The notes under the pieces are model-generated. The model saw only the letters and a program-made list of their open reading frames with translations, had not been told where the DNA came from and ran no database searches. Shown in pieces: positions 3,919 to 57,499 of a stretch of 57,499 bases of DNA. Positions within the stretch are counted from its first letter, which is position 1, and the number at the start of each line of letters is the position of its first letter. Location: assembly GCA_030646555.1 (NCBI GenBank), contig JAUSKP010000010.1:1-57499 (forward strand). The letters run 5' to 3'. The position numbers and the translations under genes are program-made. This DNA is from a bacterium. GTDB taxonomy: Bacteria; Patescibacteriota; Minisyncoccia; UBA6257; 02-FULL-45-10c.

Positions 3919-3983
3919 ATTAGTTTAATGATAAATTGATATTTATTATAGTAAGTTTCTAGTATTATGGCAAATTGTTTTTT

Positions 3984-4013
3984 GTCATTCCTGGCTTGAC
4001 CCGGAATCCAGAT
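3984..4013. repeat. half copy of family B repeat (GTCATTCC...GGAATCCAG)
   Basis: gtcattcctggcttgacccggaatccagatt matches the left half of 53267-53327. Confidence 0.7.
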
Positions 4014-4201
4014 TCTTCAAAAAACTCGCTCCGCCAATCATTTTCTCGGAAACAGCGTAATTTTTCCCTGCGAAAAATTCGCTTCGCTCTCAGAGTTTTG
4101 CCGCAGACGGACCGTGCCAAAACTCCTCCGAGACGTTCCTCAAAAAAGATTGATGTAGCACTCCGCTTGCTCATCTGCAAAAATTTCGGATAAAGATATT
4201 T

Positions 4202-4906
4202 TTAATAAAAAGACTCCGTAAAAATATTTTCTTCCGGAACACCACTTTCTTTAAGATCTTTCCAAATAGCATTCACAAACTGTATGGATCCGCAAAGATA
4301 ATAATTCCTCTTACCAAAAGAAACGAGGTGTTTTTTAAGCGACTCCTTATTCATTCGCGAATATTCTTGAACCAAAGGATGCTTACCTTTCTCCTGGGTT
4401 AAAAAATAAACCAATTTATCTATGCCTTTGTTTTTTGCTAAGTCATTCAATTCATCAAAAAAAGCTATGCCGGAAATTGTTTTGTTGCTGTAAAGCAATG
4501 TAAGCTTCGGCTTGGCTTTGGAATTTATTTTTTCTTTGATAACGCTAAAAAAAGGAGTGACGCCAATTCCTCCGGCTATAAATACTATGTCCTCGCAATT
4601 TTCTTCAGGATAAAACTTGCCGTATGGACCACCAAAAATTAATTTATCATTAATCGCGGTATCTATTAAAGCAGAAGAGAAAACTCCCTGCCTTTTGACG
4701 GTCAGACAAATTAATTTTTCATTTGGCGAACTTGAGATCGTATAACATTTAGAACGCCCAACTATTGATGGAACTTTAACGCTCACATATTGCCCGGCAA
4801 TAAAATTAAAACCAGCCCCATCCGCCGGCTTAAAAAATAGCGAAGCTATATTTTCCGCTTCGTCTTTTTTGCTTACCAATACAAATTCTCTATTTTTATT
4901 TTCCAT
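4202..4906 (-). CDS. FAD/NAD(P)-binding oxidoreductase (ferredoxin-reductase type)
   Basis: 234 aa. FR-type FAD-binding beta-barrel (GQYVSVKV, YTISS) followed by an NAD-binding GGIGVTPF motif. Overlaps the iscU stop. Confidence 0.75.
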   Translation of the reverse strand: MENKNREFVLVSKKDEAENIASLFFKPADGAGFNFIAGQYVSVKVPSIVGRSKCYTISSSPNEKLICLTVKRQGVFSSALIDTAINDKLIFGGPYGKFYPEENCEDIVFIAGGIGVTPFFSVIKEKINSKAKPKLTLLYSNKTISGIAFFDELNDLAKNKGIDKLVYFLTQEKGKHPLVQEYSRMNKESLKKHLVSFGKRNYYLCGSIQFVNAIWKDLKESGVPEENIFTESFY

Positions 4907-5336
4907 TTTTATTTAAATAATCTTCAACCGCTTCCCGCAGAGCTTCGTGCCCCAAAACCGAGCAATGAAATTTTCTGTCCGGCAAACCGCCAAGTCTTTC
5001 TACTATCTGCTGAGGTTTCAGTGTCTGCGCTGTTTTCAGATCCATTCCGCCCTTTTCAGTTGCCATCACGGACATCATTGAAGCCGAAGCAATGGCTGAG
5101 GCGCAGCCAAAAGTCCGCCATTTGCATTCCTTGATGCGTTCAGTCTTTTTATCAACTTTGATCCATGCGATCATAACGTCCCCGCATTCCGGACTGCCCA
5201 CAGTGCCCACTCCATCCGCTTTATAGCCGGTTTCGTCCAATAAAATATTTCTTGGATGAAAAAAATGATCTTTTATGGTTTCGCTATAGATCCAACCCGC
5301 TCCATCGGGAGAACACGATTTTTTTTGCTGTTTCAT
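4896..5336 (-). CDS. iscU: Fe-S cluster assembly scaffold, NifU/IscU N-terminal type
   Basis: Three conserved cysteines (GSPECGD, FGCASAIAS, FHCSVLG). Translationally coupled to the cysteine desulfurase gene. Confidence 0.9.
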   Translation of the reverse strand: MKQQKKSCSPDGAGWIYSETIKDHFFHPRNILLDETGYKADGVGTVGSPECGDVMIAWIKVDKKTERIKECKWRTFGCASAIASASMMSVMATEKGGMDLKTAQTLKPQQIVERLGGLPDRKFHCSVLGHEALREAVEDYLNKNGK

Positions 5337-6619
5337 TTTATCGAAGATATGCCTCTTATTTTTTTAACAGACTCTACTAAAACTTTCATAGTGTAGTCTA
5401 TGTCTCCTTTTTTAGTATATCGTCCAAGCGTAAAACGAACGCTGCAGTGAGCAAGTTCTAAAGGCAATCCTATGCTTAATAATACATAAGATGGGCTAAG
5501 ATCTAAGGATGAACAGGCTGATCCCGTAGAACAATAAATTCCGTACCTATCTAATAGAAGGAGCAGGGATTCCCCCTCAACTCCTTTTATAGATACATTT
5601 ATATTATTTGGCAGTCGCTGTTTTATGTCTCCGTTTACCAATACCCCATCAATTTCTTTTTGAATCCGTCTCAAAAAATAGTCTCGTAATTTTATTAATC
5701 GCTTGCTTTCTGAAACTCTTTTCTTTTCAGAAATTGAAAGAGCCTCGGAAAAACCTACAATCCCCGCCACATTTTCCGTTCCCGATCTTAATCCCCTTTC
5801 CTGTCCGCCGCCAAATATAATTGGCTCAATCTTAGCTTGTAGTGAGCCCGTCGAACTATATTTTTTATTTAAATAGAGGCACCCGATCCCTTTTGGCCCG
5901 TATATTTTTGAAGAGCTCATCGTGAGAGCATCTGCCCCTAATTCCTTAGCTTTAATTGGCAATGCGCTAGCGGCCTGGCAGGCATCCGTGTGAAATATTG
6001 GGAATAATGAATTGTTATTAAATCTGTCATTGTGAGGCAACCGAAGCAATCTATTTGTTTTCTCAGATTGCCGCGTCGCAGACTCCTCGCAATGACGGAC
6101 AGTTTTAAATTCCTGAATAATTTTAGCGATTTCCTTTATTGGTTGAATAGTTCCAATTTCGTTATTGGCATACATTATAGAAACCAAAATCGTATCCCGC
6201 CTTAAACTCAAACTCAACTTTTCTAAAGAAACCAAACCCTTTTTATCTACATCTAAATAAGTTATTTCAAAGCCTTCTTTTTCCAGTTTCTTGCAGGCAT
6301 CCAATATCGCTTTATGTTCAATACCCGAAACAATTACGTGCTTTCCTTTTTCTTTATAGGCGCGGGCAATGCCGAACATAGCCAAATTGTCGGATTCGGT
6401 TCCCCCGCTGGTAAATATAATTTCTTCCGGCTCCGCGCCAATATGTTTAGCGATATTTTTTCTTGCCGTTTCAATCGCATTCTTGCTTTCTCTGCCAAGA
6501 GCATGCAAAGAAGACGGGTTGCCATACCTTTCTTTAAAATAAGGCAACATTGCCTTTAATACCCTAGGATCAACGGGCGTCGTTGAAGCGTTATCTAAAT
6601 AGACTTGTTTAGATTTCAT
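5333..6619 (-). CDS. iscS: cysteine desulfurase (NifS/IscS class) carrying an in-frame repeat insertion
   Basis: YLDNASTTP, FTSGGTESDN, HTDACQA, SSSKIYGPKG and GSACSS motifs. About 30 extra residues are encoded by repeat 6026-6096. Confidence 0.9.
   Translation of the reverse strand: MKSKQVYLDNASTTPVDPRVLKAMLPYFKERYGNPSSLHALGRESKNAIETARKNIAKHIGAEPEEIIFTSGGTESDNLAMFGIARAYKEKGKHVIVSGIEHKAILDACKKLEKEGFEITYLDVDKKGLVSLEKLSLSLRRDTILVSIMYANNEIGTIQPIKEIAKIIQEFKTVRHCEESATRQSEKTNRLLRLPHNDRFNNNSLFPIFHTDACQAASALPIKAKELGADALTMSSSKIYGPKGIGCLYLNKKYSSTGSLQAKIEPIIFGGGQERGLRSGTENVAGIVGFSEALSISEKKRVSESKRLIKLRDYFLRRIQKEIDGVLVNGDIKQRLPNNINVSIKGVEGESLLLLLDRYGIYCSTGSACSSLDLSPSYVLLSIGLPLELAHCSVRFTLGRYTKKGDIDYTMKVLVESVKKIRGISSIK
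6026..6096. repeat. family A palindromic element (GTCATTG[CT]GAGG ... CCTCGCAATGAC) inside the iscS coding frame
   Basis: Same termini and core (ccgaagcaatct...agattgccgcgtcgcagactcctcgcaatgac) as the intergenic copies at 10499, 11326 and 11976. Confidence 0.85.
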
Positions 6620-9323: not shown

Positions 9324-9410
9324 GTAATTATTCCTCCTTGCGTTTTACGTTCGCAAAAACGAATTAATGTTCTATTTAACATTAAACTATAGAACGATAT
9401 ATTAGTCAAA
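9324..9410 (-). promoter_or_regulatory. conserved promoter/operator/5' leader cassette, copy 1 of 3
   Basis: mRNA sense: TTGACT-17 nt-TTTAAT, then a palindrome GTTCTAT..ATAGAAC over the -10, then leader AATTCGTTTTTGCGAACGTAAAACGCAAGGAGG. Confidence 0.65.
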
Positions 9411-9470: not shown

Positions 9471-9845
9471 TTATTTGGGAGGAACCGACAGATAATAGCC
9501 ATCCAGGACCGCAAACTTCTTAGGCGGATTATTGTCTAAGAGATAGGCGACTAAGTGGCCGCCCGGACCCCGGATAACCACTGCATACTTCATTGAGCCC
9601 GCGTTGTCGGGATTAACGAGCACCGAACTCATGGTCTCATAGATAGCATTGCGTTCAAAATCTGTGTCTACGAGTTTAAGTTTGCCGACGCCATCTCTAT
9701 ATACCATTGCTGAGCCTATCAGGATACATGCAATGGCCAAAATAAAATACGGTACCGGAGCACAATCGTCACCTTTTTCTATGGACACCCCAGCGAAAAT
9801 GGCGGCGAGAAGCCCCATCACTAACAGAATTATTGCAAGCGTCAT
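9471..9845 (-). CDS. 124-aa protein with two N-terminal TM helices and a soluble C-terminal domain (unit 2)
   Basis: ATG at 9843-9845 directly after leader cassette copy 2. Ends ...SVPPK. Confidence 0.65.
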   Translation of the reverse strand: MTLAIILLVMGLLAAIFAGVSIEKGDDCAPVPYFILAIACILIGSAMVYRDGVGKLKLVDTDFERNAIYETMSSVLVNPDNAGSMKYAVVIRGPGGHLVAYLLDNNPPKKFAVLDGYYLSVPPK

Positions 9846-9932
9846 ATTTCCTTCCCCCTTTGCGTTTTACGTTCGCAAAAACGAATTAACGATCTGTTTA
9901 GTATTAAACAGTAGAATGATAAGTTAGTCAAA
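9846..9932 (-). promoter_or_regulatory. conserved promoter/operator/5' leader cassette, copy 2 of 3
   Basis: Near-identical to 10229-10316. TTGACT, -10 TTTAAT overlapped by CTGTTTA-ATAC-TAAACAG, and the same GCGAACGTAAAACGCAAA leader. Confidence 0.65.
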
Positions 9933-9979: not shown

Positions 9980-10228
9980 TTATGCTATTAACCAAACTTC
10001 TTTTACCATATCAGTTATTCCATTTTCGGGAGGTTCGAAATAAACCAAATTACCTATATTTAAATCGTTAGGATTAATTTCTCCGCAGCGCTTAATCCCT
10101 TCTTTATCTATCAAGCCAGCAAATAATCCAATTGTAAAAATATATGTTCTTTCATTTTCGTCAATAATAATTCCGTGACCAAAAGGCTTATGAATTTCAT
10201 TTAAACAAGCTATTTTCCCCTTCGGCAT
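9980..10228 (-). CDS. 82-aa small protein, possibly a divergent cold-shock/OB-like fold (unit 3)
   Basis: Start trimmed to the ATG at 10226-10228, preceded by AAAGGAGGAAGG. The longer track ORF runs through the leader cassette. The GKIACLNE..KPFGHGIIID....YIF pattern is loosely CSD-like. Confidence 0.55.
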   Translation of the reverse strand: MPKGKIACLNEIHKPFGHGIIIDENERTYIFTIGLFAGLIDKEGIKRCGEINPNDLNIGNLVYFEPPENGITDMVKEVWLIA

Positions 10229-10316
10229 ATTTCCTTCCTCCTTTTGCGTTTTACGTTCGCAAAAACGAATTAACGATCTGTTTAGTATTAAACAGTAGAA
10301 CGATATGTTAGTCAAT
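10229..10316 (-). promoter_or_regulatory. conserved promoter/operator/5' leader cassette, copy 3 of 3
   Basis: TTGACTAACATATCGTTCTACTGTTTAATACTAAACAGATCGTTAATTCGTTTTTGCGAACGTAAAACGCAAAAGGAGG in mRNA sense. Confidence 0.65.
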
Positions 10317-10352
10317 AGCAATATTTTTTAAGAAATAAAACGGGCTGGATTC

Positions 10353-10374
10353 CCCTGCCTGCCGGCAGGCAGGG
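10353..10374. repeat. family P palindrome (CCCTGCCTGCCGGCAGGCAGGG)
   Basis: Perfect palindrome. Copies at 10547, 14195, 21350, 36877 and 39176. Confidence 0.85.
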
Positions 10375-10388
10375 ATCTATCCGTTTTG

Positions 10389-10423
10389 AGATTGCCGCGC
10401 TCCCTCCGGTCGCTCGCAATGAC
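10389..10423. repeat. half copy of family A repeat
   Basis: agattgccgcgc...cgctcgcaatgac equals the right arm of family A. Confidence 0.7.
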
Positions 10424-10498: not shown

Positions 10499-10578
10499 GT
10501 CATTGCGAGTGCCGCCGAAGCAATCTAGATTGCCGCGTCGCAGACTCCTGCCTACCGGCAGGCGGGCCTCGCAATGAC
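10499..10578. repeat. family A element with a nested family P palindrome, in the hrcA 5' UTR
   Basis: gtcattgcgagtgccgccgaagcaatctagattgccgcgtcgcagactc[ctgcctaccggcaggcggg]cctcgcaatgac. Confidence 0.85.
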
Positions 10579-11325: not shown

Positions 11326-11385
11326 GTCATTGCGAGTGCCGCCGAAGCAATCTAGATTGCCACGTCGCAGACTCCTCGCAATGAC
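11326..11385. repeat. family A palindromic element (60 bp)
   Basis: gtcattgcgagtgccgccgaagcaatctagattgccacgtcgcagactcctcgcaatgac. Confidence 0.9.
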
Positions 11386-11975: not shown

Positions 11976-12047
11976 GTCATTGCGAGGCAACCGAAGCAAT
12001 CTATCTAACTTTACTAGATTGCCACGTCGCGGACTCCTCGCAATGAC
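11976..12047. repeat. family A palindromic element
   Basis: gtcattgcgaggcaaccgaagcaatct...agattgccacgtcgcggactcctcgcaatgac. Confidence 0.9.
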
Positions 12048-17108: not shown

Positions 17109-17173
17109 TGCCCCCACATGGAACCCCAGCACTACAGCCAAGCTGAGTGCGGGACACGGTCGGACCCATGGTT
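17109..17173 (-). pseudogene. duplicated tRNA-Lys 3' portion (T-arm plus acceptor) with a 36-nt hairpin insert in the T-loop
   Basis: Minus sense: AACCATGGGTCCGA[CCGTGTCCCGCACTCAGCTTGGCTGTAGTGCTGGGG]TTCCATGTGGGGGCA. 18 bp are identical to the tRNA-Lys 3' end. No D or anticodon arm. Confidence 0.7.
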
Positions 17174-17229: not shown

Positions 17230-17300
17230 TGCCCCCACATGGAATCGGACCATGGTCAATTGCTTAAAAGGCAACTGCTTTACCATTAAGCTATGGGGGC
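17230..17300 (-). tRNA. tRNA-Lys (anticodon TTT)
   Basis: Manual cloverleaf: GCCCCCA/TGGGGGC acceptor, anticodon arm GTTGC-CTTTTAA-GCAAT, T-arm CATGG-TCCGATT-CCATG. Confidence 0.9.
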
Positions 17301-21329: not shown

Positions 21330-21408
21330 GTCATTCCGCACTTGATGCGCCTGCCTGCCGGCAGGCAGGGAATCCAGAAACCTAGATTCCCGCTTTCGCG
21401 GGAATGAC
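21330..21408. repeat. family B element (GTCATTCCGCACTTGATGCG ... CGCGGGAATGAC) with a nested family P palindrome
   Basis: gtcattccgcacttgatgcg[cctgcctgccggcaggcaggg]aatccagaaacctagattcccgctttcgcgggaatgac. Confidence 0.85.
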
Positions 21409-21469
21409 AGAAAAGATTTTTAATTTTACATTGTCATTTTCCATTTTGATATTTACATTTTAAACTTTT

Positions 21470-23312: not shown

Positions 23313-23326
23313 GGTATTTTTTTCTT

Positions 23327-23390
23327 GTCATTCCCGCGGAAGCGGGAATCCAGTCTTTTTTTCTAGATTCCGCATCAAGTGCGGAATGAC
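23327..23390. repeat. family B element
   Basis: gtcattcccgcggaagcgggaatccag...ctagattccgcatcaagtgcggaatgac. Confidence 0.85.
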
Positions 23391-23403
23391 AGAAATTCTC
23401 TGA

Positions 23404-24597
23404 CTAAAACCTATTTTCAAGTATATCTTTTCTTATCTTTTTCATCAATTTCTCCATAAAATAAAGATTGTGAATAGTTGTCAAAATCCCCGCCAACATT
23501 TCTCCGCTTTGGAATAAATGCCTTACATATCCCCTTGTAAAATTGGCACAGGTATAACACCCGCACCCTTTTTCAATTGGTTTCTTATCTAAAGCGAATT
23601 TACCGGACTTCATATTTAAATTTCCTTTTTCGGTTAAAGCAGTTCCGTTTCTGCCTAATCTGGTCGGAGTGACGCAGTCAAATGTATCAATGCCCCGTCT
23701 AACAGCCTCAACAATATCTTCAACTGATCCTATGCCAAGAAGATGTTTGGGTTTATTTTCAGGCAGATGTTCAACGGACCAGTCTAATTCATTTTTTGCA
23801 TTCTTCTTAAATTTTCCAAAAGCTCCGCCGATGCCAAACCCGTCAAAATCCATAGCGCCAATAAACTTAGAGCTTTCTAATCTTAAGTCTTTAAATTCAC
23901 CGCCCTGCACTATGCCGAACAATAACTGACGACCAACAACTGACGACCCACGACGAAATGCCTTTAAAGACCTTACCGCCCAACGATGAGTGCGTTCCAT
24001 TGCCTCTTTCGTATATTCATGGTCGGAATAAGGCGAAGTGCATTCATCAAAAGCAAAAATAATATCCGCCCCTAAATTTTCCTGAATCTTCATAGATTCT
24101 TCTGGGCCAATAAAATGTTTGGAGCCATCTAAAAATGATCTGAAATAAACCCCGTCTTCAGTTATCCTTGCAAATTTTCCTTCGCCCGCCATAGCTTTCT
24201 TGTCCGCCAAAGCTTTAGCGTCGGTGGAAGCGACGGCGGGTCTATTGCCCGCCTGGTTTTTACCGATAATCTTTGAGCATCCATGCTCCATTCCCAATCC
24301 CAAACTAAAAACCTGAAAACCGCCACTATCTGTAATGATCGGTTTTGGCCAATTCATAAATTTATGAAGTCCGCCAAATTTCTTTACCACCTTATCGCCT
24401 GGCCTTAGGAATAAATGGTATGTATTACATAAAACGGCCTCTATGCCCATATCGTTCAATTGCGCGGGCGTAATGCCCTTTACAGTCGCTTTGGTGCCAA
24501 CCGGATAGAAGGCCGGCGTATGGATCAAGCCGTGAGGCGTGCTAATAACCCCTGCTCGGGCTTGGCTTTTTTTAGATTTTTTTAGAATTTTAAACAC
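23404..24597 (-). CDS. tgt: queuine tRNA-ribosyltransferase (tRNA-guanine transglycosylase), start re-assigned to GTG
   Basis: TPAFYPVGT, DSGGFQ, and the zinc site CxCxxC...H (CGCYTCANFTRGYVRHL). The track ORF start (24630) lies inside tRNA-Glu. GTG at 24595-24597 aligns with the canonical Tgt N-terminus. Confidence 0.88.
   Translation of the reverse strand: MFKILKKSKKSQARAGVISTPHGLIHTPAFYPVGTKATVKGITPAQLNDMGIEAVLCNTYHLFLRPGDKVVKKFGGLHKFMNWPKPIITDSGGFQVFSLGLGMEHGCSKIIGKNQAGNRPAVASTDAKALADKKAMAGEGKFARITEDGVYFRSFLDGSKHFIGPEESMKIQENLGADIIFAFDECTSPYSDHEYTKEAMERTHRWAVRSLKAFRRGSSVVGRQLLFGIVQGGEFKDLRLESSKFIGAMDFDGFGIGGAFGKFKKNAKNELDWSVEHLPENKPKHLLGIGSVEDIVEAVRRGIDTFDCVTPTRLGRNGTALTEKGNLNMKSGKFALDKKPIEKGCGCYTCANFTRGYVRHLFQSGEMLAGILTTIHNLYFMEKLMKKIRKDILENRF
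24184..24242. repeat. GC-rich family H repeat (GCCCGCCATAGC... type) in-frame inside tgt
   Basis: gcccgccatagctttcttgtccgccaaagctttagcgtcggtggaagcgacggcggg encodes ...RPAVASTDAKALADKKAMAGEG. Related copies at 30781, 31605, 41791 and 57406. Confidence 0.7.
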
Positions 24598-24598
24598 G

Positions 24599-24670
24599 TA
24601 GCCCCAATGAGAATCGGACTCATGTTCCATCCTTGAGAAGGATGTGTCCTAGCCACTAGACGATGGGGCC
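24599..24670 (-). tRNA. tRNA-Glu (anticodon CTC)
   Basis: GGCCCCATCGTCTAGTGGCTAGGACACATCCTTCTCAAGGATGGAACATGAGTCCGATTCTCATTGGGGCTA folds as a canonical cloverleaf. The T-loop TCCGATT matches tRNA-Lys and tRNA-Val here. Confidence 0.9.
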
Positions 24671-24712
24671 GAAGATAGTACTTAGTAATTAGCCACTAGT
24701 AGTAGATTTGCT

Positions 24713-24744
24713 GGATTGCCACGTCGCAGACTCCTCGCAATGAC
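24713..24744. repeat. half copy of family A repeat
   Basis: ggattgccacgtcgcagactcctcgcaatgac. Confidence 0.75.
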
Positions 24745-30092: not shown

Positions 30093-30155
30093 TGGGCATT
30101 ACTGGAACCCCAGCACTACAGCAAAGCTGAGTGCGGGGCGCGGTTGGACCAGTGG
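30093..30155 (-). other. tRNA T-arm/acceptor-like minihelix with a 36-nt hairpin insert in the T-loop
   Basis: Minus sense: CCACTGGTCCAA[CCGCGCCCCGCACTCAGCTTTGCTGTAGTGCTGGGG]TTCCAGTAATGCCCA. The insert is 32/36 identical to the one at 17124-17159. Confidence 0.6.
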
Positions 30156-30164
30156 CCTATTTAG

Positions 30165-30236
30165 TGCACTCTACAGGAATCGGACCTGTAGCCTTTCCGA
30201 TGTGAACGGAACGCTCTACCATTGAGCTAAGAGTGC
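30165..30236 (-). tRNA. tRNA-Val (anticodon CAC)
   Basis: GCACTCT/AGAGTGC acceptor, anticodon arm TTCCG-TTCACAT-CGGAA, T-arm ACAGG-TCCGATT-CCTGT. Confidence 0.9.
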
Positions 30237-30759: not shown

Positions 30760-30893
30760 AAATTTTTTACTGCGCCCGCCATAGCTTTAGCGAAGGCGGG
30801 TTTTTGTTAATTTTTATTGTGTTAACCTCCGACGCTTCGGTCGGAGCCCCGTACTTTGCCGACAGGCAAACGTCGGGGTTGTTATTTTATTTA

Positions 30894-31560: not shown

Positions 31561-31674
31561 TATCAGATCACTTCGCCAGTCAATATTGGCGGCGAGATCT
31601 CAAAACCCGCCGTCGCCCCCGACTTCGCAAGGCTTCGACGGGCAAGAAGGCTATGGCGGGCGAAGAAAGAAAAA

Positions 31675-33142: not shown

Positions 33143-33859
33143 TCAATCTTTGATTAGAGGCACAAAACTAAAACCAAAATATTCTTTTTTATCATACGCA
33201 TCTTTTGACTTCTTTTCTACCATCACAATGCTATTTTTGATAGGCGCGATAATTTTACCGCCAATTTTTAATTGCTCCAGCCAAGCGGCCGGAATTTCAT
33301 CGGCCGCGGCAGCGGCGATAATCTTGTCATAGGGCTCAAATTCCTTGCAGCCCAAAGAACCATCGCCCAAAACCAGCCTGACGATTCCCTGTTTTTCAAA
33401 TCCATACTTTATTAGATTTTCTTTGGCAAGTTTTTGAAGCTCTTCAATCCTTTCAACTGAAATGACCGAATATGAAATTGATGTCATTTCATTTTTAGCG
33501 ATAATTTCTTTATGAGTCTTGTCCTCGCTTCCGGAAAATTCCGCCTTTTGCTCTATCTCACGTTTCATATGGGTTAGAATATGAGCCATTAAAGCGGTTT
33601 TCCATCCGGAGCCGGTGCCAATTTCCAAAACACGTTCCCCTATTTTCAAATCCAAAAGCTCAAGCATAAAAGCCACAACCAACGGCTGGGAAATTGTCTG
33701 CCCATTACCGATAAGAAGCGGTTCATTCAGATAAGCCTTATCTTTGAACGCTTCCAAAACAAAATCTTTCCTGTCTACATTTTTAAAAGCTTCAATAATT
33801 ACGGGGTTTTTTAAATAGCCGTCTTTTTTTAAAAGCTCTATGAGTTCTTCATTTGTCAT
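33143..33859 (-). CDS. pcm: protein-L-isoaspartate O-methyltransferase
   Basis: GQTISQP and VLEIGTGSGW SAM motifs. Start trimmed to the ATG at 33857-33859 because upstream codons overlap the terminator hairpin of the preceding gene. Confidence 0.85.
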   Translation of the reverse strand: MTNEELIELLKKDGYLKNPVIIEAFKNVDRKDFVLEAFKDKAYLNEPLLIGNGQTISQPLVVAFMLELLDLKIGERVLEIGTGSGWKTALMAHILTHMKREIEQKAEFSGSEDKTHKEIIAKNEMTSISYSVISVERIEELQKLAKENLIKYGFEKQGIVRLVLGDGSLGCKEFEPYDKIIAAAAADEIPAAWLEQLKIGGKIIAPIKNSIVMVEKKSKDAYDKKEYFGFSFVPLIKD

Positions 33860-33884
33860 CTTCTTATTATAACAAAAAGAAAAA

Positions 33885-33915
33885 GCCCCCTCGCGCATAC
33901 AGCGCGCGAGGGGGC
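33885..33915 (-). terminator. rho-independent terminator of the 717-aa gene
   Basis: GCCCCCTCGCGCGCTGTATGCGCGAGGGGGC plus a T-run in minus sense. Confidence 0.85.
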
Positions 33916-36412: not shown

Positions 36413-36649
36413 ATGTATTACGTTTATATTTTAAATTGTTCAGATAATCATCCATATACTGGATGCACTAACGATTTAAAAGAAAGACTAAAGCGACATC
36501 GGGATAAACAAGTTCTAGCAACTGCAAATAGACTTCCTATACAGCTAATCACATATATAGCATTTAAGAATAAATACACGGCTTACAATTTTGAAAAATA
36601 TTTAAAATCTGGTTCTGGACGAGCTTTCATAAATAAACATTTAATATAA
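36413..36649 (+). CDS. small GIY-YIG nuclease-family protein (copy 1)
   Basis: MYYVYILNCSDNHPYTGCTNDLKERLKRH... shows the GIY-YIG pattern. The upstream part of the track ORF overlaps tRNA-Trp and repeats, so the start was trimmed. Confidence 0.8.
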   Translation: MYYVYILNCSDNHPYTGCTNDLKERLKRHRDKQVLATANRLPIQLITYIAFKNKYTAYNFEKYLKSGSGRAFINKHLI

Positions 36650-36876: not shown

Positions 36877-36896
36877 CCTGCCTACCGGCAGGCAGG
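36877..36896. repeat. family P palindrome
   Basis: cctgcctaccggcaggcagg. Confidence 0.8.
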
Positions 36897-39175: not shown

Positions 39176-39196
39176 CCCTGCCTGCCGGTAGGCAGG
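39176..39196. repeat. family P palindrome
   Basis: ccctgcctgccggtaggcagg. Confidence 0.8.
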
Positions 39197-41259: not shown

Positions 41260-43308
41260 CTATCTAAGCTCTGCCCCCACCTTCTCTATTAAAACTTTTA
41301 TAATCTTTTGAAGTTCTTTGTCAACTTCCACATCGGTAAGAGTTTTGTCTTTAGCTTGAAAAACAATCCTGAAAGTCAGGCTTTTCTTTCCGCCGAATTT
41401 TTCATCTTCATAGAAATCCATCAAGTCAACATCGTCCACATGCTCCGGCTCAACGCTTTGAATGATATCTAGAATATCACCCACTCTGATATCACTAGCC
41501 ACCAACATAGAAATATCTCTATCTATAGAAGGAAACTTTGAGATTGGTTCATATTCTTTTTCTTCAACTATAGCTTTGACCAATCTTTCCATATCTAATT
41601 CAAGCACGGCGCCATTTTTAGAGCTTTTCAAAACTCCGATATAGCCCAACACAGAATGGTCGCCCATCTCAATTCTCACGGCGCCATTGTCTTCTAATAA
41701 ATTATTTTTTAAATTCAGATCCGGCATAAACCAATCCACCAAACCCAAATTACTAAATAATCCATCTACAATCCCCTTGAGCTCTAAAAATCCGCCTGCC
41801 CGTCCGACTTGCCCGTCCGAAGCCTTGCGAAGGAGGGAGCCTTGCGAAGGAGGGTCCTTTGCGTAAATGGCAATGCCCAAAACCGGTTTCTCTGATATTT
41901 TAGAAACCCCCTTCTGTTCAGAGGTATCTCCGAATACCCTGCCAATTTCAAAAATTCTAACTTCTTCATAAAATCTCAAGTTATCATTTAAATTCTTTTC
42001 CAGATATGGAGCCAAACTATTTCTTAAATAAGCAAAATCAACGCTTAATGGATTGGCCAAGCTTATTGGCCTTTTTATTCCAAAAACTTCGGCCGGAGCC
42101 AAATCTGTTTTTTCTTTTGATATAAAAGAATAATTATAAACCTCGCTATATCCGGCAGCGCACAAATATTTTCTAATTTTGTCCCTAATAATGACCGAGT
42201 CGTCTTCTGCCCCAATACCCAAAGAGATCTTCGGCGAAACCGCTGGCAATTTATTAAAATTTTTAAACCTTACTATTTCCTCGGCGACGTCTTCAATTAT
42301 CTCAATATCATTTCTGATCGCCGGAGCAGTGATCAAATTCTTTGAAACTTTAAAATCAAGTTTTGATAATATACTGACTACTTCTGATCTTTTTATTTTT
42401 ATGCCTATGATTCTTTCTATCTTGGGCAAATCCAATTTTATCGCTCTCTTCGGCTGTTTTTTTGGATAAACATCCTCGGTCTTATATATTTTGGCTCCGC
42501 AGATTTCCTTAAGAAGGACTAACGCCCTATTCATCCCTAATCCAACCAATTCCGGACTTAAATTATGCGAAAAAGCGATAGAGGCATCAGTTCGGAGATT
42601 AAGTTTTTTTGAATTTTTATAAATACCAACTCCCTCAAAATTAGCTGATTCTACTAATAGCCTATTGGTTTTCAATGAAACCTCGCTATATTTTCCGCCT
42701 TTAATTCCGGCGATAGCTAACGGCCGGTCTTCATCGGCAATCACTAGAGTATCTTCGGAAAGTTTGAATTTATTATTATCTATCGTTTCAATTTCTTCTC
42801 CATTTTTAGCCCTTCTTACTATTATTCCCCCCTTAACTTTATCCGCGTCAAAAGCGTGAAGCGGCTGTCCAATTTCCAACATAACGTAATTCATAATATC
42901 CACCACGTTATTGATAGATCTTAATCCTGAAGTTTCCAGAACATCTTTAAGCCATTCCGGAGAAGGACCAACTTTTACATCGGTCACGTAAGTGGCGCTA
43001 TATCGCGGGCATAAAACTTTTTCTTTGATATTAACTTTAAAAATGCCCTTATCCTTAAAATCAAACTTTGGATTCTTTAGGGTCGGATCAATAAACTCTG
43101 TATCAAAAATAGCCGAAGCTTCCCTAGCGATGCCTAAATGAGATGCCGCGCTGGAAAAACGCCTGGCAATAGAAGTATTCGGAACTTCCAAAATATCCCC
43201 TCCCAAATCAACGGCCTCAAAAGAATACGTATTCAAACCCTCAACCAAATCGGCTTTAGAATATTTTCCCGGCGCAAATTTTTTAATTAAAGAAAAACTA
43301 AATTTCAT
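41260..43308 (-). CDS. pheT: phenylalanine--tRNA ligase beta subunit (short form without the N-terminal tRNA-binding domain) with an in-frame repeat insertion
   Basis: B3/B4, B5, catalytic-like and FDX-ACB domains recognisable. Adjacent to pheS. Confidence 0.92.
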   Translation of the reverse strand: MKFSFSLIKKFAPGKYSKADLVEGLNTYSFEAVDLGGDILEVPNTSIARRFSSAASHLGIAREASAIFDTEFIDPTLKNPKFDFKDKGIFKVNIKEKVLCPRYSATYVTDVKVGPSPEWLKDVLETSGLRSINNVVDIMNYVMLEIGQPLHAFDADKVKGGIIVRRAKNGEEIETIDNNKFKLSEDTLVIADEDRPLAIAGIKGGKYSEVSLKTNRLLVESANFEGVGIYKNSKKLNLRTDASIAFSHNLSPELVGLGMNRALVLLKEICGAKIYKTEDVYPKKQPKRAIKLDLPKIERIIGIKIKRSEVVSILSKLDFKVSKNLITAPAIRNDIEIIEDVAEEIVRFKNFNKLPAVSPKISLGIGAEDDSVIIRDKIRKYLCAAGYSEVYNYSFISKEKTDLAPAEVFGIKRPISLANPLSVDFAYLRNSLAPYLEKNLNDNLRFYEEVRIFEIGRVFGDTSEQKGVSKISEKPVLGIAIYAKDPPSQGSLLRKASDGQVGRAGGFLELKGIVDGLFSNLGLVDWFMPDLNLKNNLLEDNGAVRIEMGDHSVLGYIGVLKSSKNGAVLELDMERLVKAIVEEKEYEPISKFPSIDRDISMLVASDIRVGDILDIIQSVEPEHVDDVDLMDFYEDEKFGGKKSLTFRIVFQAKDKTLTDVEVDKELQKIIKVLIEKVGAELR
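41791..41857. repeat. GC-rich family H repeat in-frame inside pheT
   Basis: tccgcctgcccgtccgacttgcccgtccgaagccttgcgaaggagggagccttgcgaaggaggg, with internal tandem units. Encodes PPSQGSLLRKASDGQVGRAGG. Confidence 0.75.
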
Positions 43309-43324: not shown

Positions 43325-43591
43325 TTAAATCGAGCACCCTGTTAAATAAGATTTGAGGCGACTCTTTATAAACATTTTACCATGATAAGTTTTAAAATAT
43401 TTTTCTCTGTGCATAGCATCTTTTTTGTTTAAACAAGCTTCGGAATAAATTATTTTTAACGGTCTTCTATTTTTTGTCGAAATCACATAACCTTTTCGAT
43501 GTTCCTCAAATCTTAATTTCAAATTTTCGGTATAGCCTGCATAAAATTTATTATCTTTTAGCGATTGCAATATATAAACATAATAAAACAT
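43325..43591 (-). CDS. small GIY-YIG nuclease-family protein (copy 2)
   Basis: MFYYVYILQSLKDNKFYAGYTENLKLRFEEH...NRRPLKIIYSE. 88 aa. Confidence 0.85.
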   Translation of the reverse strand: MFYYVYILQSLKDNKFYAGYTENLKLRFEEHRKGYVISTKNRRPLKIIYSEACLNKKDAMHREKYFKTYHGKMFIKSRLKSYLTGCSI

Positions 43592-47854: not shown

Positions 47855-47914
47855 AAATCATAAAACCGGCAACAAAATGCCGGTTTTATGATTTGTGCGC
47901 GGTAGATGGGATTT
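47855..47914. repeat. direct repeat copy A: duplicated tRNA-Asp 3' end plus its terminator hairpin
   Basis: aaatcataaaaccggcaa(caa)aatgccggttttatgatttgtgcgcggtagatgggattt is repeated at 48025-48081, where it is part of the intact tRNA-Asp locus. Confidence 0.85.
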
Positions 47915-48064
47915 CCCTACGGTAAATTTACTGACGTAAATTTCCTCCGGGCCGGCCCTCACAGCGCTCGCCTCGCCTTCAGCGAACTCGCGCTTTGCTC
48001 CGGGCTTCAAATCCCCCTACGTATAAATCATAAAACCGGCAAAATGCCGGTTTTATGATTTGTG

Positions 48065-48139
48065 CGCGGTAGATGGGATTTGAACCCACGGTCTCCTCCG
48101 TGACAGGGAGGCGCATTAGGCCAGCTATGCTACTACCGC
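48065..48139 (-). tRNA. tRNA-Asp (anticodon GTC)
   Basis: GCGGTAG/CTACCGC acceptor, anticodon arm CCTCC-CTGTCAC-GGAGG, T-arm GTGGG-TTCAAAT-CCCAT. A 14-bp-stem terminator follows. Confidence 0.9.
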
Positions 48140-48800: not shown

Positions 48801-48838
48801 AGATTGATTATACCAAGTAATAATTTAAGATTTACTCT

Positions 48839-48900
48839 GTCATTCCGCACTTGATGCGGAATCTAGGTTTTCTGGATTCCGGCTCGTTGGCCGGAATGAC
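48839..48900. repeat. family B element
   Basis: gtcattccgcacttgatgcggaatctaggttttctggattccggctcgttggccggaatgac. Confidence 0.9.
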
Positions 48901-50391: not shown

Positions 50392-50430
50392 ATTTTTATT
50401 TTGTGTTCTTTTGCTATTTTACTTCCCTTT

Positions 50431-50501
50431 GTCATTCCGTACTTGATACGGAATCCAGAATCATGGATCCCCGGGTCTCGCTTCGTTCGCCCGAGGATGA
50501 C
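50431..50501. repeat. family B element
   Basis: gtcattccgtacttgatacggaatccagaatcatggatccccgggtctcgcttcgttcgcccgaggatgac. Confidence 0.85.
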
Positions 50502-50539
50502 AGATGCCCTTTGTTTTTCTAGTGGCTAGTCGCTAATTA

Positions 50540-50830
50540 CTATTCAAACACCGGTGGCACCTTAAGATATCCATCCTTTGATTCGGGAAATCCTTCTACG
50601 CCCTTGCCCTGGTCTTCATTTTCATTAAAATCATCTTCTCTTGTGATATTTTCCAAGCTAGTTCCTCCGGTCATTGGAACTACTCCGGAAGTATCCAAAT
50701 TCGCCAATTCTTCAAAATGGCCAAGAATACTTTTAAAATCAGCCAGAAATTTATCCTCTTTTTTTGGATCTATTTCTATCCTTGCCAGTTCGGCGAGATG
50801 TTTTAATATTTTTTTATTTATTTCTGCCAT
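50540..50830 (-). CDS. gatC: Glu/Asp-tRNA amidotransferase subunit C
   Basis: ILKHLAELARIEI...LANLDTSGV pattern. Start trimmed to MAEINKK because upstream codons come from repeat 50855-50946. Confidence 0.88.
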   Translation of the reverse strand: MAEINKKILKHLAELARIEIDPKKEDKFLADFKSILGHFEELANLDTSGVVPMTGGTSLENITREDDFNENEDQGKGVEGFPESKDGYLKVPPVFE

Positions 50831-50854
50831 AGAAGTAATATTACTATAAAATCT

Positions 50855-50946
50855 GTCATTCCGCACTTGATGCGGAATCTAGATCTTCTGGATTCCCGCT
50901 TTCCCTCCTTCGCCGAGGCTTCGGACGGGCAAAGCGCGGGAATGAC
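50855..50946. repeat. family B element with a nested GC-rich insert
   Basis: gtcattccgcacttgatgcggaatctagatcttctggattcccgctt[tccctccttcgccgaggcttcggacgggcaaa]gcgcgggaatgac. Confidence 0.85.
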
Positions 50947-53247: not shown

Positions 53248-53266
53248 TTTTTTATCCTTCTACTCT

Positions 53267-53327
53267 GTCATTCCGGGCTTGACCCGGAATCCAGAAATTC
53301 TGGATCCCGCATCAAGTGCGGGATGAC
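53267..53327. repeat. family B element
   Basis: gtcattccgggcttgacccggaatccagaaattctggatcccgcatcaagtgcgggatgac. Confidence 0.9.
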
Positions 53328-53339
53328 AAAAATAATTTT

Positions 53340-53756
53340 CTATTTAATAACTCTTATTTCTTGATTAAAAACATATGAGGTTTTTGCATATTTAGCGGTA
53401 GAAGTTATTGCAAAATAATCATAATCCGCATCTGAACCAGTTTGGACACAAGTTGTTTTTAAAATATCGTCGCCAACGCCAAAAGAAGGTTTTTCGTTGC
53501 AAACAACTCCGTCATCCGAACAATTTTCCGCTTTACACGAATTTTCATCCTTAAGAAATTTATAAAGCCTCCATTCCAGCCCGGCATCGGCGGCAAAAAT
53601 AGCTTTAGAAAAAGACCCCGCGTCAGCGCTTTGTCTAGTCTGCCGGGAAGTTAAAAGACCCCCGACTGCTACGGCGCCGATCATCACCGCGGATAGGACC
53701 ATAACAACAATCATCATTGCTTGTCCGTTATTATTTTTATCTTGTATTTTTTTCAT
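53340..53756 (-). CDS. pilin-like/pseudopilin-like protein (hydrophobic N-terminal helix)
   Basis: Start trimmed to MKKIQDKNNNGQAMMIVVMVLSAVMIGAVAV. The upstream part of the track ORF is translated family B repeat. Confidence 0.55.
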   Translation of the reverse strand: MKKIQDKNNNGQAMMIVVMVLSAVMIGAVAVGGLLTSRQTRQSADAGSFSKAIFAADAGLEWRLYKFLKDENSCKAENCSDDGVVCNEKPSFGVGDDILKTTCVQTGSDADYDYFAITSTAKYAKTSYVFNQEIRVIK

Positions 53757-53766
53757 ATCTTTTTTT

Positions 53767-53826
53767 GTCATTCCGCACTCGATGCGGAATCTAGGCTCTC
53801 TGGATTCCCGCCTTCGCGGGAATGAC
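53767..53826. repeat. family B element
   Basis: gtcattccgcactcgatgcggaatctaggctctctggattcccgccttcgcgggaatgac. Confidence 0.9.
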
Positions 53827-53838
53827 GAATGTTTTAGT

Positions 53839-55186: not shown

Positions 55187-55447
55187 TTATCTACAAACTT
55201 GAGCACCCGCCAAAATTTTATTTAAATAATTCCTGCCCCAACCTGTTTTTAAATACTTTTCTCGTTTCATAGCCATTAATTTATTTTTATGACCTTCAAA
55301 ATATACAAGTTCTAACGGACGTCTATTTTTAGTCGAAATTACCAATCCCTTACCGTGTTCCAATACTCTTCTTTTTATATTATCAGTATAACCGACATAA
55401 AACCCATTGTCTTTTTTACATAATAAAACGTAAGTATAATAAAACAT
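55187..55447 (-). CDS. small GIY-YIG nuclease-family protein (copy 3)
   Basis: MFYYTYVLLCKKDNGFYVGYTDNIKRRVLEH...NRRPLELVYFE. Start trimmed to the ATG at 55445-55447. Confidence 0.8.
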   Translation of the reverse strand: MFYYTYVLLCKKDNGFYVGYTDNIKRRVLEHGKGLVISTKNRRPLELVYFEGHKNKLMAMKREKYLKTGWGRNYLNKILAGAQVCR

Positions 55448-57405: not shown

Positions 57406-57499
57406 CCGCCTTCGCATCCTGCCGTCGTTTCCTCCTTCGCCAATGCTATGGCGGACGAAGAAAACTATGGCGGGCGAGGAAAGCTATGGCGGACGAAGT
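57406..57499. repeat. GC-rich family H repeats (CCTTCGC / CTATGGCGG[AG]CGA[AG]GAAA tandem units) running to the window edge
   Basis: ccgccttcgc...cctccttcgccaatgctatggcggacgaagaaaactatggcgggcgaggaaagctatggcggacgaagt. Confidence 0.75.

Follow-up and report, generated by a model that had tools for sequence, protein, structure and literature searches.

We report here a 71-nt palindrome in frame within the iscS gene of a member of the Patescibacteria (CPR), a real and tolerated selfish insertion of the kind known from the Rickettsia palindromic elements (RPEs), for which a route of mobilization can be proposed. Our observations are probably best explained by a non-coding selfish palindrome that inserted into a permissive surface loop of the cysteine desulfurase IscS and is translated with the enzyme. 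The palindrome would be a gene-less cassette, spread in trans by a nuclease of the Ssn type.

The window, that is, the whole 57,499-nt stretch of DNA analysed, belongs to a metagenome-derived contig, and the protein cluster of its IscS has a single member. Our view of the genome is this 57-kb window, and a second, insert-free desulfurase may be encoded elsewhere. The iscS region contains the following features.

4896 to 5336, minus strand: NifU_N scaffold gene, directly downstream of iscS, in the same operon in insert-free relatives.
5333 to 6619, minus strand: intact IscS/NifS-type cysteine desulfurase of 428 aa (Aminotran_5, Pfam E=2e-79).
5834 to 5857, minus strand: another short in-frame insert of 24 nt, SSTGSLQA, common only to the relative P0002 and of low pLDDT.
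6002 to 6109, minus strand: lineage-specific IscS segment, aa 171-206, without counterpart in solved IscS/NFS1 or in 105 of 120 homologues.
6026 to 6096, no strand assigned: family-A palindrome within iscS; the minus (gene) strand translates as (R)HCEESATRQSEKTNRLLRLPHND.

The first-pass annotation had described an uninterrupted reading frame of 428 aa that passes through the element as ...EFKTVRHCEESATRQSEKTNRLLRLPHNDRFNNNSLFPIFHTDACQ..., and both the frame and the peptide were recovered exactly as claimed. All residues that are invariant in 120 homologues are kept in this IscS (H102, D212, Q215, K238, C369, and R395). Based on the intact frame and these conserved residues, we infer that the insert is translated and that the enzyme is functional. 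The insert follows a helix ending ...IAKIIQ and precedes the strand FHTDACQ, where only a short turn had been expected. Indeed, the IAKII-to-FH loop comprises 15-16 aa in 105 of the 120 closest homologues and at least 47 aa in only 7, solved IscS/NFS1 chains run continuously at this site (176 to 181), and both Pfam and PDB alignments are interrupted at query residues ~170 and 207. An ortholog alignment agrees with the earlier estimate of about 25-30 lineage-specific residues and refines it: ~24 of roughly 31 extra residues derive from the 71-nt element, and the others (FNNNSLF and others) constitute a lineage-specific longer loop flanking it.

Structure prediction, which the first-pass annotation had proposed as a check, gave an AlphaFold model in which the IscS fold is kept and its core unchanged (mean pLDDT 88.9; TM-score to IscS/NFS1 0.90-0.96, normalised to target). 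The two inserts have the lowest confidence, with pLDDT <50 at 193-201 and 257-261 only. In the model, the preceding helix is prolonged into the insert (H161-189) and residues 190-203 are of low confidence, so that the insert is predicted to form a low-confidence helix extension plus a loop. The insert site, a helix-strand junction occupied by a short turn in 105 of 120 homologues, is compatible with the protein fold as modelled.

The 71-nt palindrome at positions 6026-6096 has the termini GTCATTGYGAGG/CCTCGCAATGAC; it starts GTCATTGTGAGG and ends CCTCGCAATGAC, and its terminal arms are complementary at 11 of 12 positions. Family A is built from an inverted pair of modules, YGTCATTGCGAG-(variable)-GCAATCT. 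Folded as RNA, the mRNA strand of the iscS element reaches -26.1 kcal/mol (z -3.8), beating every shuffle, and four of the six reading frames of this copy are free of stops. The terminus motif GTCATTGYGAGG, with at most one mismatch, has 11 matches in the window, including the paired copies at 10499, 11326, and 11976; the expectation given by 100 shuffles is 0.24, and no shuffle had as many as 11. Family A is represented in the 57 kb by four full and two half copies, the latter and the full copies other than that in iscS being as follows.

10388 to 10423, plus strand: family-A solo right half, diverged.
10499 to 10578, no strand assigned: intergenic family-A copy upstream of hrcA; a GC-rich hairpin, CCTGCCTACCGGCAGGCGGG, is nested within it.
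11326 to 11385, no strand assigned: family-A short form, hrcA/grpE intergenic, halves abutting at CTAG.
11976 to 12047, no strand assigned: family-A copy, grpE/dnaK intergenic, with the layout of the iscS copy (central spacer), 64/70 identical.
24707 to 24744, plus strand: family-A solo right half (…GATTGCCACGTCGCAGACTCCTCGCAATGAC), intergenic, adjoining a tRNA gene.

The first-pass annotation had recognized the same termini and core in the iscS element and in the paired copies at 10499, 11326, and 11976. This holds: the identity is 91-95% (plus orientation), and the positions of all three copies upstream of hrcA and in the hrcA/grpE and grpE/dnaK gaps are intergenic. The copy at 11976 has perfect termini (12/12) and the strongest fold. 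In-frame repeats are present also in Tgt and LigA of the same window. An Rfam scan of the whole window at gathering thresholds returned tRNAs only, and the palindromes match no RNA family.

At other loci, family-A modules bracket a small nuclease gene. The L082 cassette (Berkelbacteria) is composed of a family-A left half, a 95-aa GIY-YIG ORF, and a family-A right half, the right end of which is identical to the iscS copy at 32 of 32 nt. Among metagenomic homologues of the L082 nuclease, GTCAT[TC] is found at most 165 nt upstream in 33 of 40 (distal control, 4/40) and [GA]ATGAC downstream in 32 of 40 (control, 6/40); strict family-A termini on both sides are present in only 6 of 65 nuclease homologues. 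Since family-A modules elsewhere bracket a single-domain GIY-YIG gene of ~90 aa, the palindrome corresponds to the architecture of this cassette minus the gene, and the iscS palindrome appears to be a version, lacking the gene, of a small nuclease cassette that occurs in many bacterial phyla. Judged by the published description, the GIY-YIG genes flanked by family-A ends resemble the Ssn family. A family-A-flanked GIY-YIG cassette was not found inside the window, which contains three GIY-YIG genes assigned by Pfam PF01541.

36413 to 36649, plus strand: single-domain GIY-YIG nuclease gene, 78 aa.
43325 to 43591, minus strand: single-domain GIY-YIG nuclease gene, 88 aa, with ATTTAACAGGGT inverted repeats, and not family A, at its borders.
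55187 to 55447, minus strand: single-domain GIY-YIG nuclease gene, 86 aa.

The inverted repeat flanking these three genes is ATTTAACAGGGT, not family A, and their products share 31-38% identity with the L082 nuclease. The product of 43325-43591 is of the candidate class for an enzyme acting in trans.

No target-site duplication (TSD) was detected in 63 paired copies of the element, in which junction repeats of 2-9 nt were no commoner than in shuffled pairings; the flanks of these 63 copies lengthen the inverted repeat by one base, Y...R. The 20 unassigned ORFs of the window that were scanned contain no transposase domain. Pairs of termini 1.3-2.0 kb apart at other loci enclose ordinary host genes and no transposase, and the GIY-YIG nuclease is the sole gene found to be bounded by family-A ends. 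A classical MITE was considered and rejected: inverted termini are present (11-12/12), but 63 copies show no TSD, and no parent transposase sharing the ends was found at the loci and ORFs scanned.

We propose that a surface loop of IscS, being permissive, received a copy of the palindrome, which would since be carried through transcription and translation with the rest of iscS and add ~24 residues. Copies may be spread in trans by a GIY-YIG nuclease of the Ssn kind, along a route that leaves no TSD, which could be either ssDNA cut-and-paste or copying mediated by repair or recombination. Insertions with an open frame in a tolerant loop would survive purifying selection. Repeated hits and re-modelling of the loop are best explained by structural tolerance, with an A/T-rich target and recombination at the shared GTCATT/AATGAC ends as possible contributing factors. 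The insert itself is most probably baggage, either neutral or mildly deleterious, and no adaptation.

The same loop was compared among relatives that share ~74-85% nucleotide identity at the site and are nearly equidistant; these relatives stem from groundwater data sets, Hainich (ERZ1292616) being one. The empty site that the first-pass annotation expected in sister genomes is present in P0007 and P0012, among others, and repeat-free relatives have no homologous segment at this position. By contrast, P0004 carries the same element at the same junction (with junctions marked by slashes, TTTAAAACTGTCC/GTCATT...AATGAC/AGA). P0003 has the junctions of the window around an inverted interior with two nested GC hairpins. 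The loop of P0002 and P0010 contains an NTS-like hairpin pair (TGTCATTCCGC...GCGGGAATGACA), and that of P0005 and P0006 a third, unrelated palindromic sequence, which was not found in the window. The iscS loop is an insertion hotspot, with at least three unrelated palindromes among close relatives.

Between the window and P0004, the element differs by 17%, equal to the flanking gene, which fits inheritance followed by decay; the P0004 palindrome has decayed to a DNA fold of z -1.4. Simple vertical inheritance cannot explain everything, however, because the pattern of inserts does not match gene similarity. P0003, which shares family-A junctions with the window and P0004, has its highest overall similarity to P0007, which carries no insert (85% versus 81% and 77% nucleotide identity). 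The rare 8-aa indel SSTGSLQA, the 24-nt segment of which occurs once in the window and is no repeat there, is common to the window and P0002, yet these two carry families A and B, respectively. The right junctions of the window and of P0002 all but coincide in position, and both elements end AATGACAGA. Finally, the iscS copy is 91-95% identical to the paralogous copies of its own genome compared to 83% for the orthologous P0004 copy.

These incongruent characters could also reflect a patch of recombination or gene conversion, whereby segments were swapped between related alleles or same-genome copies via the GTCATT...AATGAC ends, possibly once ssDNA has been cleaved in the course of DNA uptake, a scenario put forward for NTS/SsnA in Neisseria (PMC11893778). 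Such swapping would account for identical junctions in non-sister genes, for the inverted interior, and for the replacement of one family by another. It would likewise agree with the lack of a TSD and with the finding that SsnA modulates the integration of transforming DNA (PMC11893778). However, sliding-window identities, noisy at roughly 80% divergence, gave no clear recombination breakpoints around the insert. The near equidistance of the sequences (74-85%) means that the tree is poorly resolved, the contrast of 91% versus 83% is weak on a 71-nt sequence, and the first arrival of the element would still require an insertion event. We regard exchange of this kind as an unlikely source of the insert.

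Beyond iscS, an exact 21-mer of family A occurs in CPR and in non-CPR phyla, and in-frame copies were found in ten proteins of other genomes: AlaRS, a class-I aaRS, PolA, XseA, TatD, TrmD, PheT, Sua5/TsaC, ATP synthase gamma, and UvrB. In all ten cases, which were verified with Pfam, the host domain resumes in the same frame past the element; the PheT insertion is a candidate, the region being only ~8 aa longer than in solved PheT. The repeat is mostly intergenic, and its reading frame varies between host proteins. Element length modulo 3 is uniform among 63 pairs (24/21/18), and the same is true of the 20 pairs located within long ORFs; these lengths thus give no sign that the copies in ORFs form a subclass selected by length. 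The first-pass annotation knew of no such feature in CPR-type genomes. Our literature searches (DNA motif, peptides, and palindromes or MITEs in CPR) found no description of in-frame elements in CPR bacteria, in keeping with this part of the claim; the element itself, being present in many phyla, is not specific to CPR. The nearest relevant literature is the Ssn paper (PMC11893778) and a general MITE review.

Alternatively, the insert might be functional, having been exapted either to give IscS a new surface feature or, at the mRNA level, as a hairpin controlling translation or stability of the iscS-nifU operon. An open-frame insert is kept in at least three lineages, the predicted hairpin of the mRNA strand is strong, and the AlphaFold model extends the preceding helix into the insert. 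Against this stand close relatives with a wholly different sequence, or nothing, at the site, and a peptide dictated by a mostly intergenic repeat that is read in varying frames and is found in at least ten unrelated enzymes. The decay of the P0004 palindrome and the low model confidence of residues 190-203 also argue against a function, which we consider improbable.

Less probable still is a loss of the insert on the way to the mature protein, by intron-like excision, translational bypass, or as an intein. CPR rRNA insertions that are excised offer a precedent for removal. Bypass encoded by a mobile element has been described as well, of the T4 gene 60 type (bioRxiv 10.1101/2022.08.31.505936). 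However, the segment preserves an open, continuous reading frame, a state that removal would make needless; group I/II introns and inteins are far larger than its 71 nt, it contains no intein motifs, there is no Rfam match, Pfam identifies Aminotran_5 only, and the host domain continues in frame in the ten cases from other genomes. We rejected an intein, a self-splicing intron, and bypass on these grounds. That the assembly went wrong at a repeat, or that the gene is a decaying pseudogene, is scarcely credible: the contig is metagenome-derived and the protein cluster has one member, but a sequencing read is longer than the element, which lies between collinear gene halves, the same insert and junction are present in independent ENA and JGI assemblies (P0003 in two, P0004 in another), the ORF is intact with its invariant residues and the nifU operon conserved, and model confidence is high outside the inserts. 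The assembly error that the first-pass annotation had raised as an objection is accordingly not a likely one.

A tolerated selfish insertion into IscS, our preferred explanation, has consequences beyond this gene. To our knowledge, in-frame selfish DNA in essential genes has for 25 years been largely a matter of Rickettsia, with no enzyme known behind it. The same phenomenon is now seen in CPR/Patescibacteria and some other phyla, and sequence-identical counterparts of the palindrome bracket a nuclease gene, a homologous enzyme family having recently been shown to cut ssDNA beside such repeats. The occurrence in CPR, the nuclease-bracketing counterparts, and three palindromes in one loop together open the question of how RPE-like elements arise and move to experiment. 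Peptides derived from the repeats (HCEESATRQS..., VIASEAKQS...SQTPRND, ...LAMT) inflate and distort protein families, alignments, and gene calls of CPR, and they can mark permissive insertion sites in enzymes. More tentatively, palindromes tied to Ssn-type GIY-YIG nucleases might systematically colonise surface loops of essential proteins across phyla, especially in CPR, and be exchanged, flipped, and replaced in situ without a TSD. We consider this broader proposition possible, though doubtful; if true, it would constitute a previously undescribed mode of mobility and a continuous source of loop diversity in core enzymes.

Among known systems, MITEs occur in frame in genes, examples being ERIC/IRU, Coxiella QMITE1, pneumococcal BOX, and Anabaena MITEs (reviewed in PMC10969869). 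Like these, family A comprises small, non-autonomous inverted-repeat elements able to make in-frame ORF fusions or insertions; unlike classical MITEs, which derive from DDE-type insertion sequences and have a TSD, family A has none in 63 copies and is associated with GIY-YIG genes. REP/BIME-RAYT systems are similar in their hairpin repeats flanking one associated enzyme gene, in lacking a TSD, and in a presumed ssDNA biology. RAYTs are IS200/IS605-like Y1 transposases, and REPs are essentially extragenic. By contrast, family-A elements are often intragenic, the enzyme class is GIY-YIG, and the window yielded no Y1 transposase.

RPEs are palindromic repeats that occur both between genes and in frame in housekeeping genes (Ogata et al. 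2000 Science 290:347; PMC10969869). Family A shares with them short palindromes located between genes and in frame in unrelated housekeeping genes, translation, predicted in the case of family A, as an extra peptide judged compatible with the fold, hosts that are host-dependent bacteria with reduced genomes, and several families per genome. The hosts differ, RPEs being known from Rickettsia and family A from Patescibacteria/CPR and many other phyla, as do the sizes (60-120 nt for the elements described here versus about 100-150 bp), and the two are likened by description, not by sequence. Family-A ends, moreover, coincide with the flanks of GIY-YIG genes. We know of no mobilising enzyme established for RPEs. 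The first-pass annotation had called the element RPE-like. An in-frame palindrome in an essential enzyme makes it an analogue, but membership of the RPE family does not follow, since the host belongs to the Patescibacteria, judged by the source names of its closest homologues.

Ssn-type nucleases are not known to mobilise their repeats. SsnA is a GIY-YIG ssDNA nuclease associated with NTS and Ssn-related motifs (SRMs), and Ssn-type nucleases cut ssDNA next to NTS hairpins; mobility of the NTS-ssnA-NTS unit is a hypothesis in that work (Chenal et al. 2025, PMC11893778). The published SRM pattern, HGTCWYN(0-2)YYVSBRHN(0-5)WNVSBRGN(0-2)RNCYNB, has four matches in the window (21382, 50471, 53300, and 53800), of which three are family-B (NTS-like) hairpins and none overlaps any family-A copy. 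The halves of family A in the window do not form a stable autonomous hairpin (-2.8 and -0.5 kcal/mol, z about +1), whereas family-B halves and the gene-flanking family-A variants of L126 and L082 do (z -2.9 to -4.6). Family A fails the SRM pattern and its window halves do not fold on their own, and for the latter reason we do not file it as a bona fide SRM. A further difference is that a text search of PMC11893778 returned neither gene-less inverted pairs nor in-frame intragenic copies. The likeness nevertheless extends to several features: family A and the Ssn/NTS repeats have the conserved frame CGTCATT...AATCYRG in common, family B of the window and the P0002 insert are NTS-like hairpins, and in both systems inverted repeats that are widespread across phyla flank small single-domain GIY-YIG genes.

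The element at 6026-6096 is an imperfect palindrome of 71 nt, GTCATTGTGAGGCAACCGAAGCAATCTATTTGTTTTCTCAGATTGCCGCGTCGCAGACTCCTCGCAATGAC, lying within iscS. As the first-pass annotation had held, it belongs to palindromic repeat family A, being 91-95% identical in + orientation to the three intergenic paired copies. At ≤1 mismatch, the 12-nt terminus motif of the family has 11 matches in the window, against a mean of 0.24 in dinucleotide-preserving shuffles (0/100 reach 11).

Family A and the iscS region
5333-6619, minus strand: iscS cysteine desulfurase ORF, 428 aa, class-V aminotransferase fold (Pfam Aminotran_5, E=2e-79)
Downstream of iscS: NifU_N scaffold gene, its start overlapped by 4 nt by the iscS ORF
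10499-10578, 11326-11385, 11976-12047: paired family A copies in the hrcA-grpE-dnaK intergenic spacers
24707-24744, 10388-10423: solo right halves of family A

The ORF is intact and carries the element in frame, and the first-pass description of element and gene, an uninterrupted 428-aa ORF, was accurate throughout. Read on the gene strand, the element yields (R)HCEESATRQSEKTNRLLRLPHND. Four of the six frames of this copy are free of stops, and the third frame at the right terminus of family A closes with a TGA stop.

The extra segment was compared with the 120 most similar proteins of a 5.8-billion-protein collection, which are 57-84% identical to the window IscS (BLASTP) and which, where the source names a lineage, come from Patescibacteria, Minisyncoccota or Paceibacterota. 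From the IAKII helix as far as FH there are 15-16 residues in 105 of these homologues and at least 47 in only 7, so that the proposed lineage specificity of the segment is upheld. Relatives such as P0007, P0012 and P0013 show the empty site: these proteins, 389 aa long and insert-free, have an ordinary turn (…NNKLSDPIFH…); the same iscS-nifU-FNR-like operon is common to relatives of this type where the contig is long enough.

DNA was compared for seven relatives of about 74-85% nucleotide identity. P0004 has the same element, orientation and junctions as the window (TTTAAAACTGTCC / GTCATT…AATGAC / AGA), and its element is 83% identical to the window copy, which equals the divergence of the surrounding gene. 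P0003, present in two independent assemblies, has identical junctions around an interior that is flipped with respect to the gene and contains two nested GC-rich hairpins. In P0002 and P0010 the loop holds an inverted hairpin pair of another family (TGTCATTCCGCACTTGATGCGGAATCCAGA…TGGATTCCCGCTTTCGCGGGAATGACA), which is also abundant in the window; a third palindrome, 109 nt long and unrelated, is present in P0005 and P0006, and P0041, P0086, P0110 and P0011 have yet other loop extensions. The distribution of inserts is at odds with overall gene similarity: P0003 is nearest to the insert-free P0007 (85%), and among the 120 homologues only P0002, bearer of the other family, has the rare 8-aa indel (SSTGSLQA) of the window IscS. 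The IscS loop, with its different palindromes distributed unlike gene similarity, is thus a hotspot where elements have repeatedly arrived, been inverted or been replaced, whether by successive insertion or by allelic recombination. The main rival reading, which differs about the route and not about what the element is, is patch-wise recombination between alleles or copies via their shared ends. It would account for the incongruent distribution, the flipped interior in P0003 and the replacement between families A and B; we consider it unlikely.

A GC palindrome, CCTGCCTGCCGGCAGGCAGG, occurs five times in perfect or near-perfect form in the window (10354-10373, 10547-10566, 21350-21369, 36877-36896 and 39177-39196), one copy being nested within the family A copy 10499-10578. 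Such nested small hairpins, similar to those in the P0003 element, suggest that elements insert into elements.

Pfam and PDB alignments of the window IscS are interrupted between query residues ~170 and 207, a position at which solved IscS/NFS1 chains are continuous (e.g. 176 to 181). All columns invariant in the 120 homologues are kept, including H102, D212 and Q215 of the FHTDACQ strand, K238, which is the PLP lysine by alignment, and the catalytic cysteine C369. In the structure prediction suggested by the first-pass annotation (AlphaFold2 with the 120-sequence alignment; mean pLDDT 88.9, pTM 0.89), the IscS fold is kept, with target-normalised TM-scores of 0.90-0.96 to IscS/NFS1 structures in Foldseek, and low confidence is confined to two inserts. 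Means for 10-residue blocks over residues 171-210 are 80, 62, 46 and 77, and pLDDT values under 50 are limited to 193-201 and 257-261, the latter in the second insert, SSTGSLQA (5834-5857, minus strand; 24 nt in frame, found once in the window). The model continues the preceding helix into the insert (H161-189) and then has a disordered stretch. The strand with D212 at its C-terminal end has the insert ahead of its N-terminal end, so that, given the general geometry of this fold, the insert should lie away from the PLP site. With the host fold preserved in the model and the universally conserved residues kept, the insert-bearing enzyme looks intact. Survival of the element in IscS would reflect tolerance of the loop, the insert being neutral baggage; an adaptive role finds little support and seems improbable. 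That the insert is removed before translation, or that it is an artefact or part of a pseudogene, also finds little support, and we regard either as extremely improbable.

An exact 21-mer of the right arm, TCGCRGACTCCTCGCAATGAC, was found at a minimum of 109 loci in species-representative genomes. The matches listed include CPR lineages (Saccharibacteria, Berkel-, Davies-, Uhr-, Kerfeld-, Doudna-, Collier-, Falkow- and Kuenenbacteria) and others (Desulfovibrionales, Dehalococcoidia, Nitrospirales, Gammaproteobacteria, Fibrobacteres, Rhodothermales, Actinomycetota, Sulfurimonas and more), and many of the copies among them lie inside long open frames.

Loci with in-frame family A, CPR and Gammaproteobacteria among them (others exist)
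L036, 1-1848, minus strand
L045, 4629-6638, minus strand
L034, 1918-4188, minus strand
L081, 3759-5822, plus strand

In ten of ten in-frame copies checked with Pfam, the host domain spans the element. The hosts are alanyl-tRNA synthetase, a class-I aminoacyl-tRNA synthetase, PheT, TrmD and Sua5/TsaC, and DNA polymerase I, exonuclease VII large subunit, UvrB, TatD and ATP synthase gamma; the copy in PolA adjoins the MILQVHDE motif. The peptides fall into three frame classes, VIA(S/R)…PRND, (R/C)HCEE… and SLRG…LAMT. In-frame insertion of such repeats is a general phenomenon.

The window holds further repeats within genes.

Further in-frame inserts
23404-24630, minus strand: Tgt ORF, repeat insert at ~24177-24245 (…NQAGNRPAVASTDAKALADKKAMAGEG…)
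51118-53247, minus strand: NAD-dependent DNA ligase (LigA) ORF, 71-nt insert at 51562-51632

Tgt has ~41 extra residues where solved Tgt structures have 4, and the insert DNA is homologous to intergenic repeats at ~31600-31668, 30766-30799 and 57431-57499. The ligase has ~30 extra residues between regions aligned to E. coli LigA residues 529 and 535; a pilin-like ORF (53839-54507) holds in its 5' portion an inverted copy of this insert (54396-54466; 85% identity). These are the second and third in-frame repeat insertions of the window, both in essential genes and from families other than A. In the PheT ORF (41260-43308, minus strand), a GC-rich stretch at 41771-41874 (…DPPSQGSLLRKASDGQVGRAGG…) has CTTCGCAAGGCTTCG(G)ACGGGCAAG in common with the intergenic repeat at ~31620; the region, only ~8 aa longer than in a solved PheT, is a tentative candidate for an insertion. 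A protein-L-isoaspartate O-methyltransferase ORF (33143-33898, minus strand) places 236 residues over a 210-position Pfam profile, ~30 aa longer, and may hold another insertion.

Other repeats were also observed. An 85-nt sequence occurs three times at 79-92% identity (9325-9409, 9847-9931 and 10231-10315; spacing 522 and 384 nt), alternating with small ORFs lacking Pfam matches (9471-9845, 9980-10321), and looks like a tandemly duplicated small-gene unit. A 42-nt direct repeat (47873-47914, 48040-48081; 100% identity, 167 nt apart), whose second copy overlaps the 3' end of a tRNA gene (48065-48139, minus strand), could be an attachment-site remnant. A 53-nt GC-rich repeat (17119-17171, 30103-30155; 89% identity) adjoins tRNA genes at 17230-17300 and 30165-30236 and has no Rfam match at the gathering threshold.

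At the level of sequence, the ends of family A elements were shown to be the ends of GIY-YIG cassettes. On a Berkelbacteria contig (L082), a 95-aa single-domain GIY-YIG ORF lies between the two family A arms, in the order GTCATTGCGAG…GCAATCTATCA, GIY-YIG ORF, TGATAGATTGCCGCGTCGCAGACTCCTCGCAATGAC; over 32 nt, the right end matches the iscS copy exactly. Among metagenomic homologues of this nuclease with enough flanking DNA, GTCAT[TC] occurs within 165 nt upstream of the gene in 33/40 (distal control 4/40) and [GA]ATGAC within ~170 nt downstream in 32/40 (distal control 6/40); 6 of 65 homologues have strict family A termini on both sides. We propose that an Ssn-type nuclease acting in trans would spread family A copies by way of ssDNA or of repair, a link suggested by architecture and end identity. 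No target-site duplication was detectable in 63 paired copies, and the flanking bases simply add one further position (Y…R) to the inverted repeat. None of 20 unassigned window ORFs scanned has a transposase domain, and no family A cassette lies within the 57-kb window.

GIY-YIG genes and NTS-like repeats of the window
36413-36649, plus strand: intact single-domain GIY-YIG gene
43325-43591, minus strand: intact single-domain GIY-YIG gene
55187-55447, minus strand: intact single-domain GIY-YIG gene
Near 22844, 29704, 37754: several GIY-YIG C-terminal remnants
3971-4016, 21382-21414, 23321-23393, 48825-48900, 50417-50502, 50841-50946, 53253-53344, 53753-53827: NTS-like hairpin repeats, TGTCATTCCGC…GCGGAATC(T/C)AG

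This is an unusually high density of GIY-YIG genes and remnants for 57 kb. The genes are bounded by an inverted repeat, ATTTAACAGGGT, unlike family A, and their proteins share only 31-38% identity with the L082 enzyme; ATTTAACAGGGT(G) has 9 matches in the window and at 43335/43614 brackets one of the genes in inverted orientation. The NTS-like hairpins, the second repeat family of the window, lie in intergenic spacers, either solitary or arranged in inverted pairs, with a cluster at 48.8-53.9 kb; four copies fit the published SRM pattern. ORF calls at 50540-50866 and 53340-53855 appear to begin inside such hairpins.

Beyond the works cited here, we found no literature on the family A motif, its peptides or palindromic elements and MITEs of CPR bacteria, most subscription-journal papers being outside the search; within that scope, nothing contradicts the first-pass view that in-frame palindromes are not established for CPR genomes. 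Family A differs from classical MITEs and REP/RAYT systems in features that define these, namely target-site duplication and the DDE or Y1 enzyme. In anatomy, the closest system is NTS/SRM-Ssn. Neisseria NTS repeats (CGTCATTCCCGCGMAVGCGGGAATCYRG), as published in 2025, are paired with the GIY-YIG nuclease SsnA, which cleaves single-stranded DNA beside the NTS hairpin and whose gene, "IS-like" according to the authors, is typically bracketed by its own repeats (PMC11893778); that paper makes no mention of intragenic copies or CPR bacteria. Likenesses are the repeat-bracketed GIY-YIG gene, as in L082-type cassettes, and the outer boxes YGTCATT…AATCT, common to family A and NTS. However, family A fails the strict published SRM pattern and its halves in the window form no stable hairpins alone, and we therefore regard it as a relative of the NTS/Ssn system in architecture, not a demonstrated member. 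The in-frame cases given in a review of MITEs are confined to Rickettsia, enterobacterial ERIC, Coxiella, pneumococcus and Anabaena (PMC10969869). In behaviour, the Rickettsia palindromic elements are the closest analogue of family A, as the first-pass annotation had proposed.
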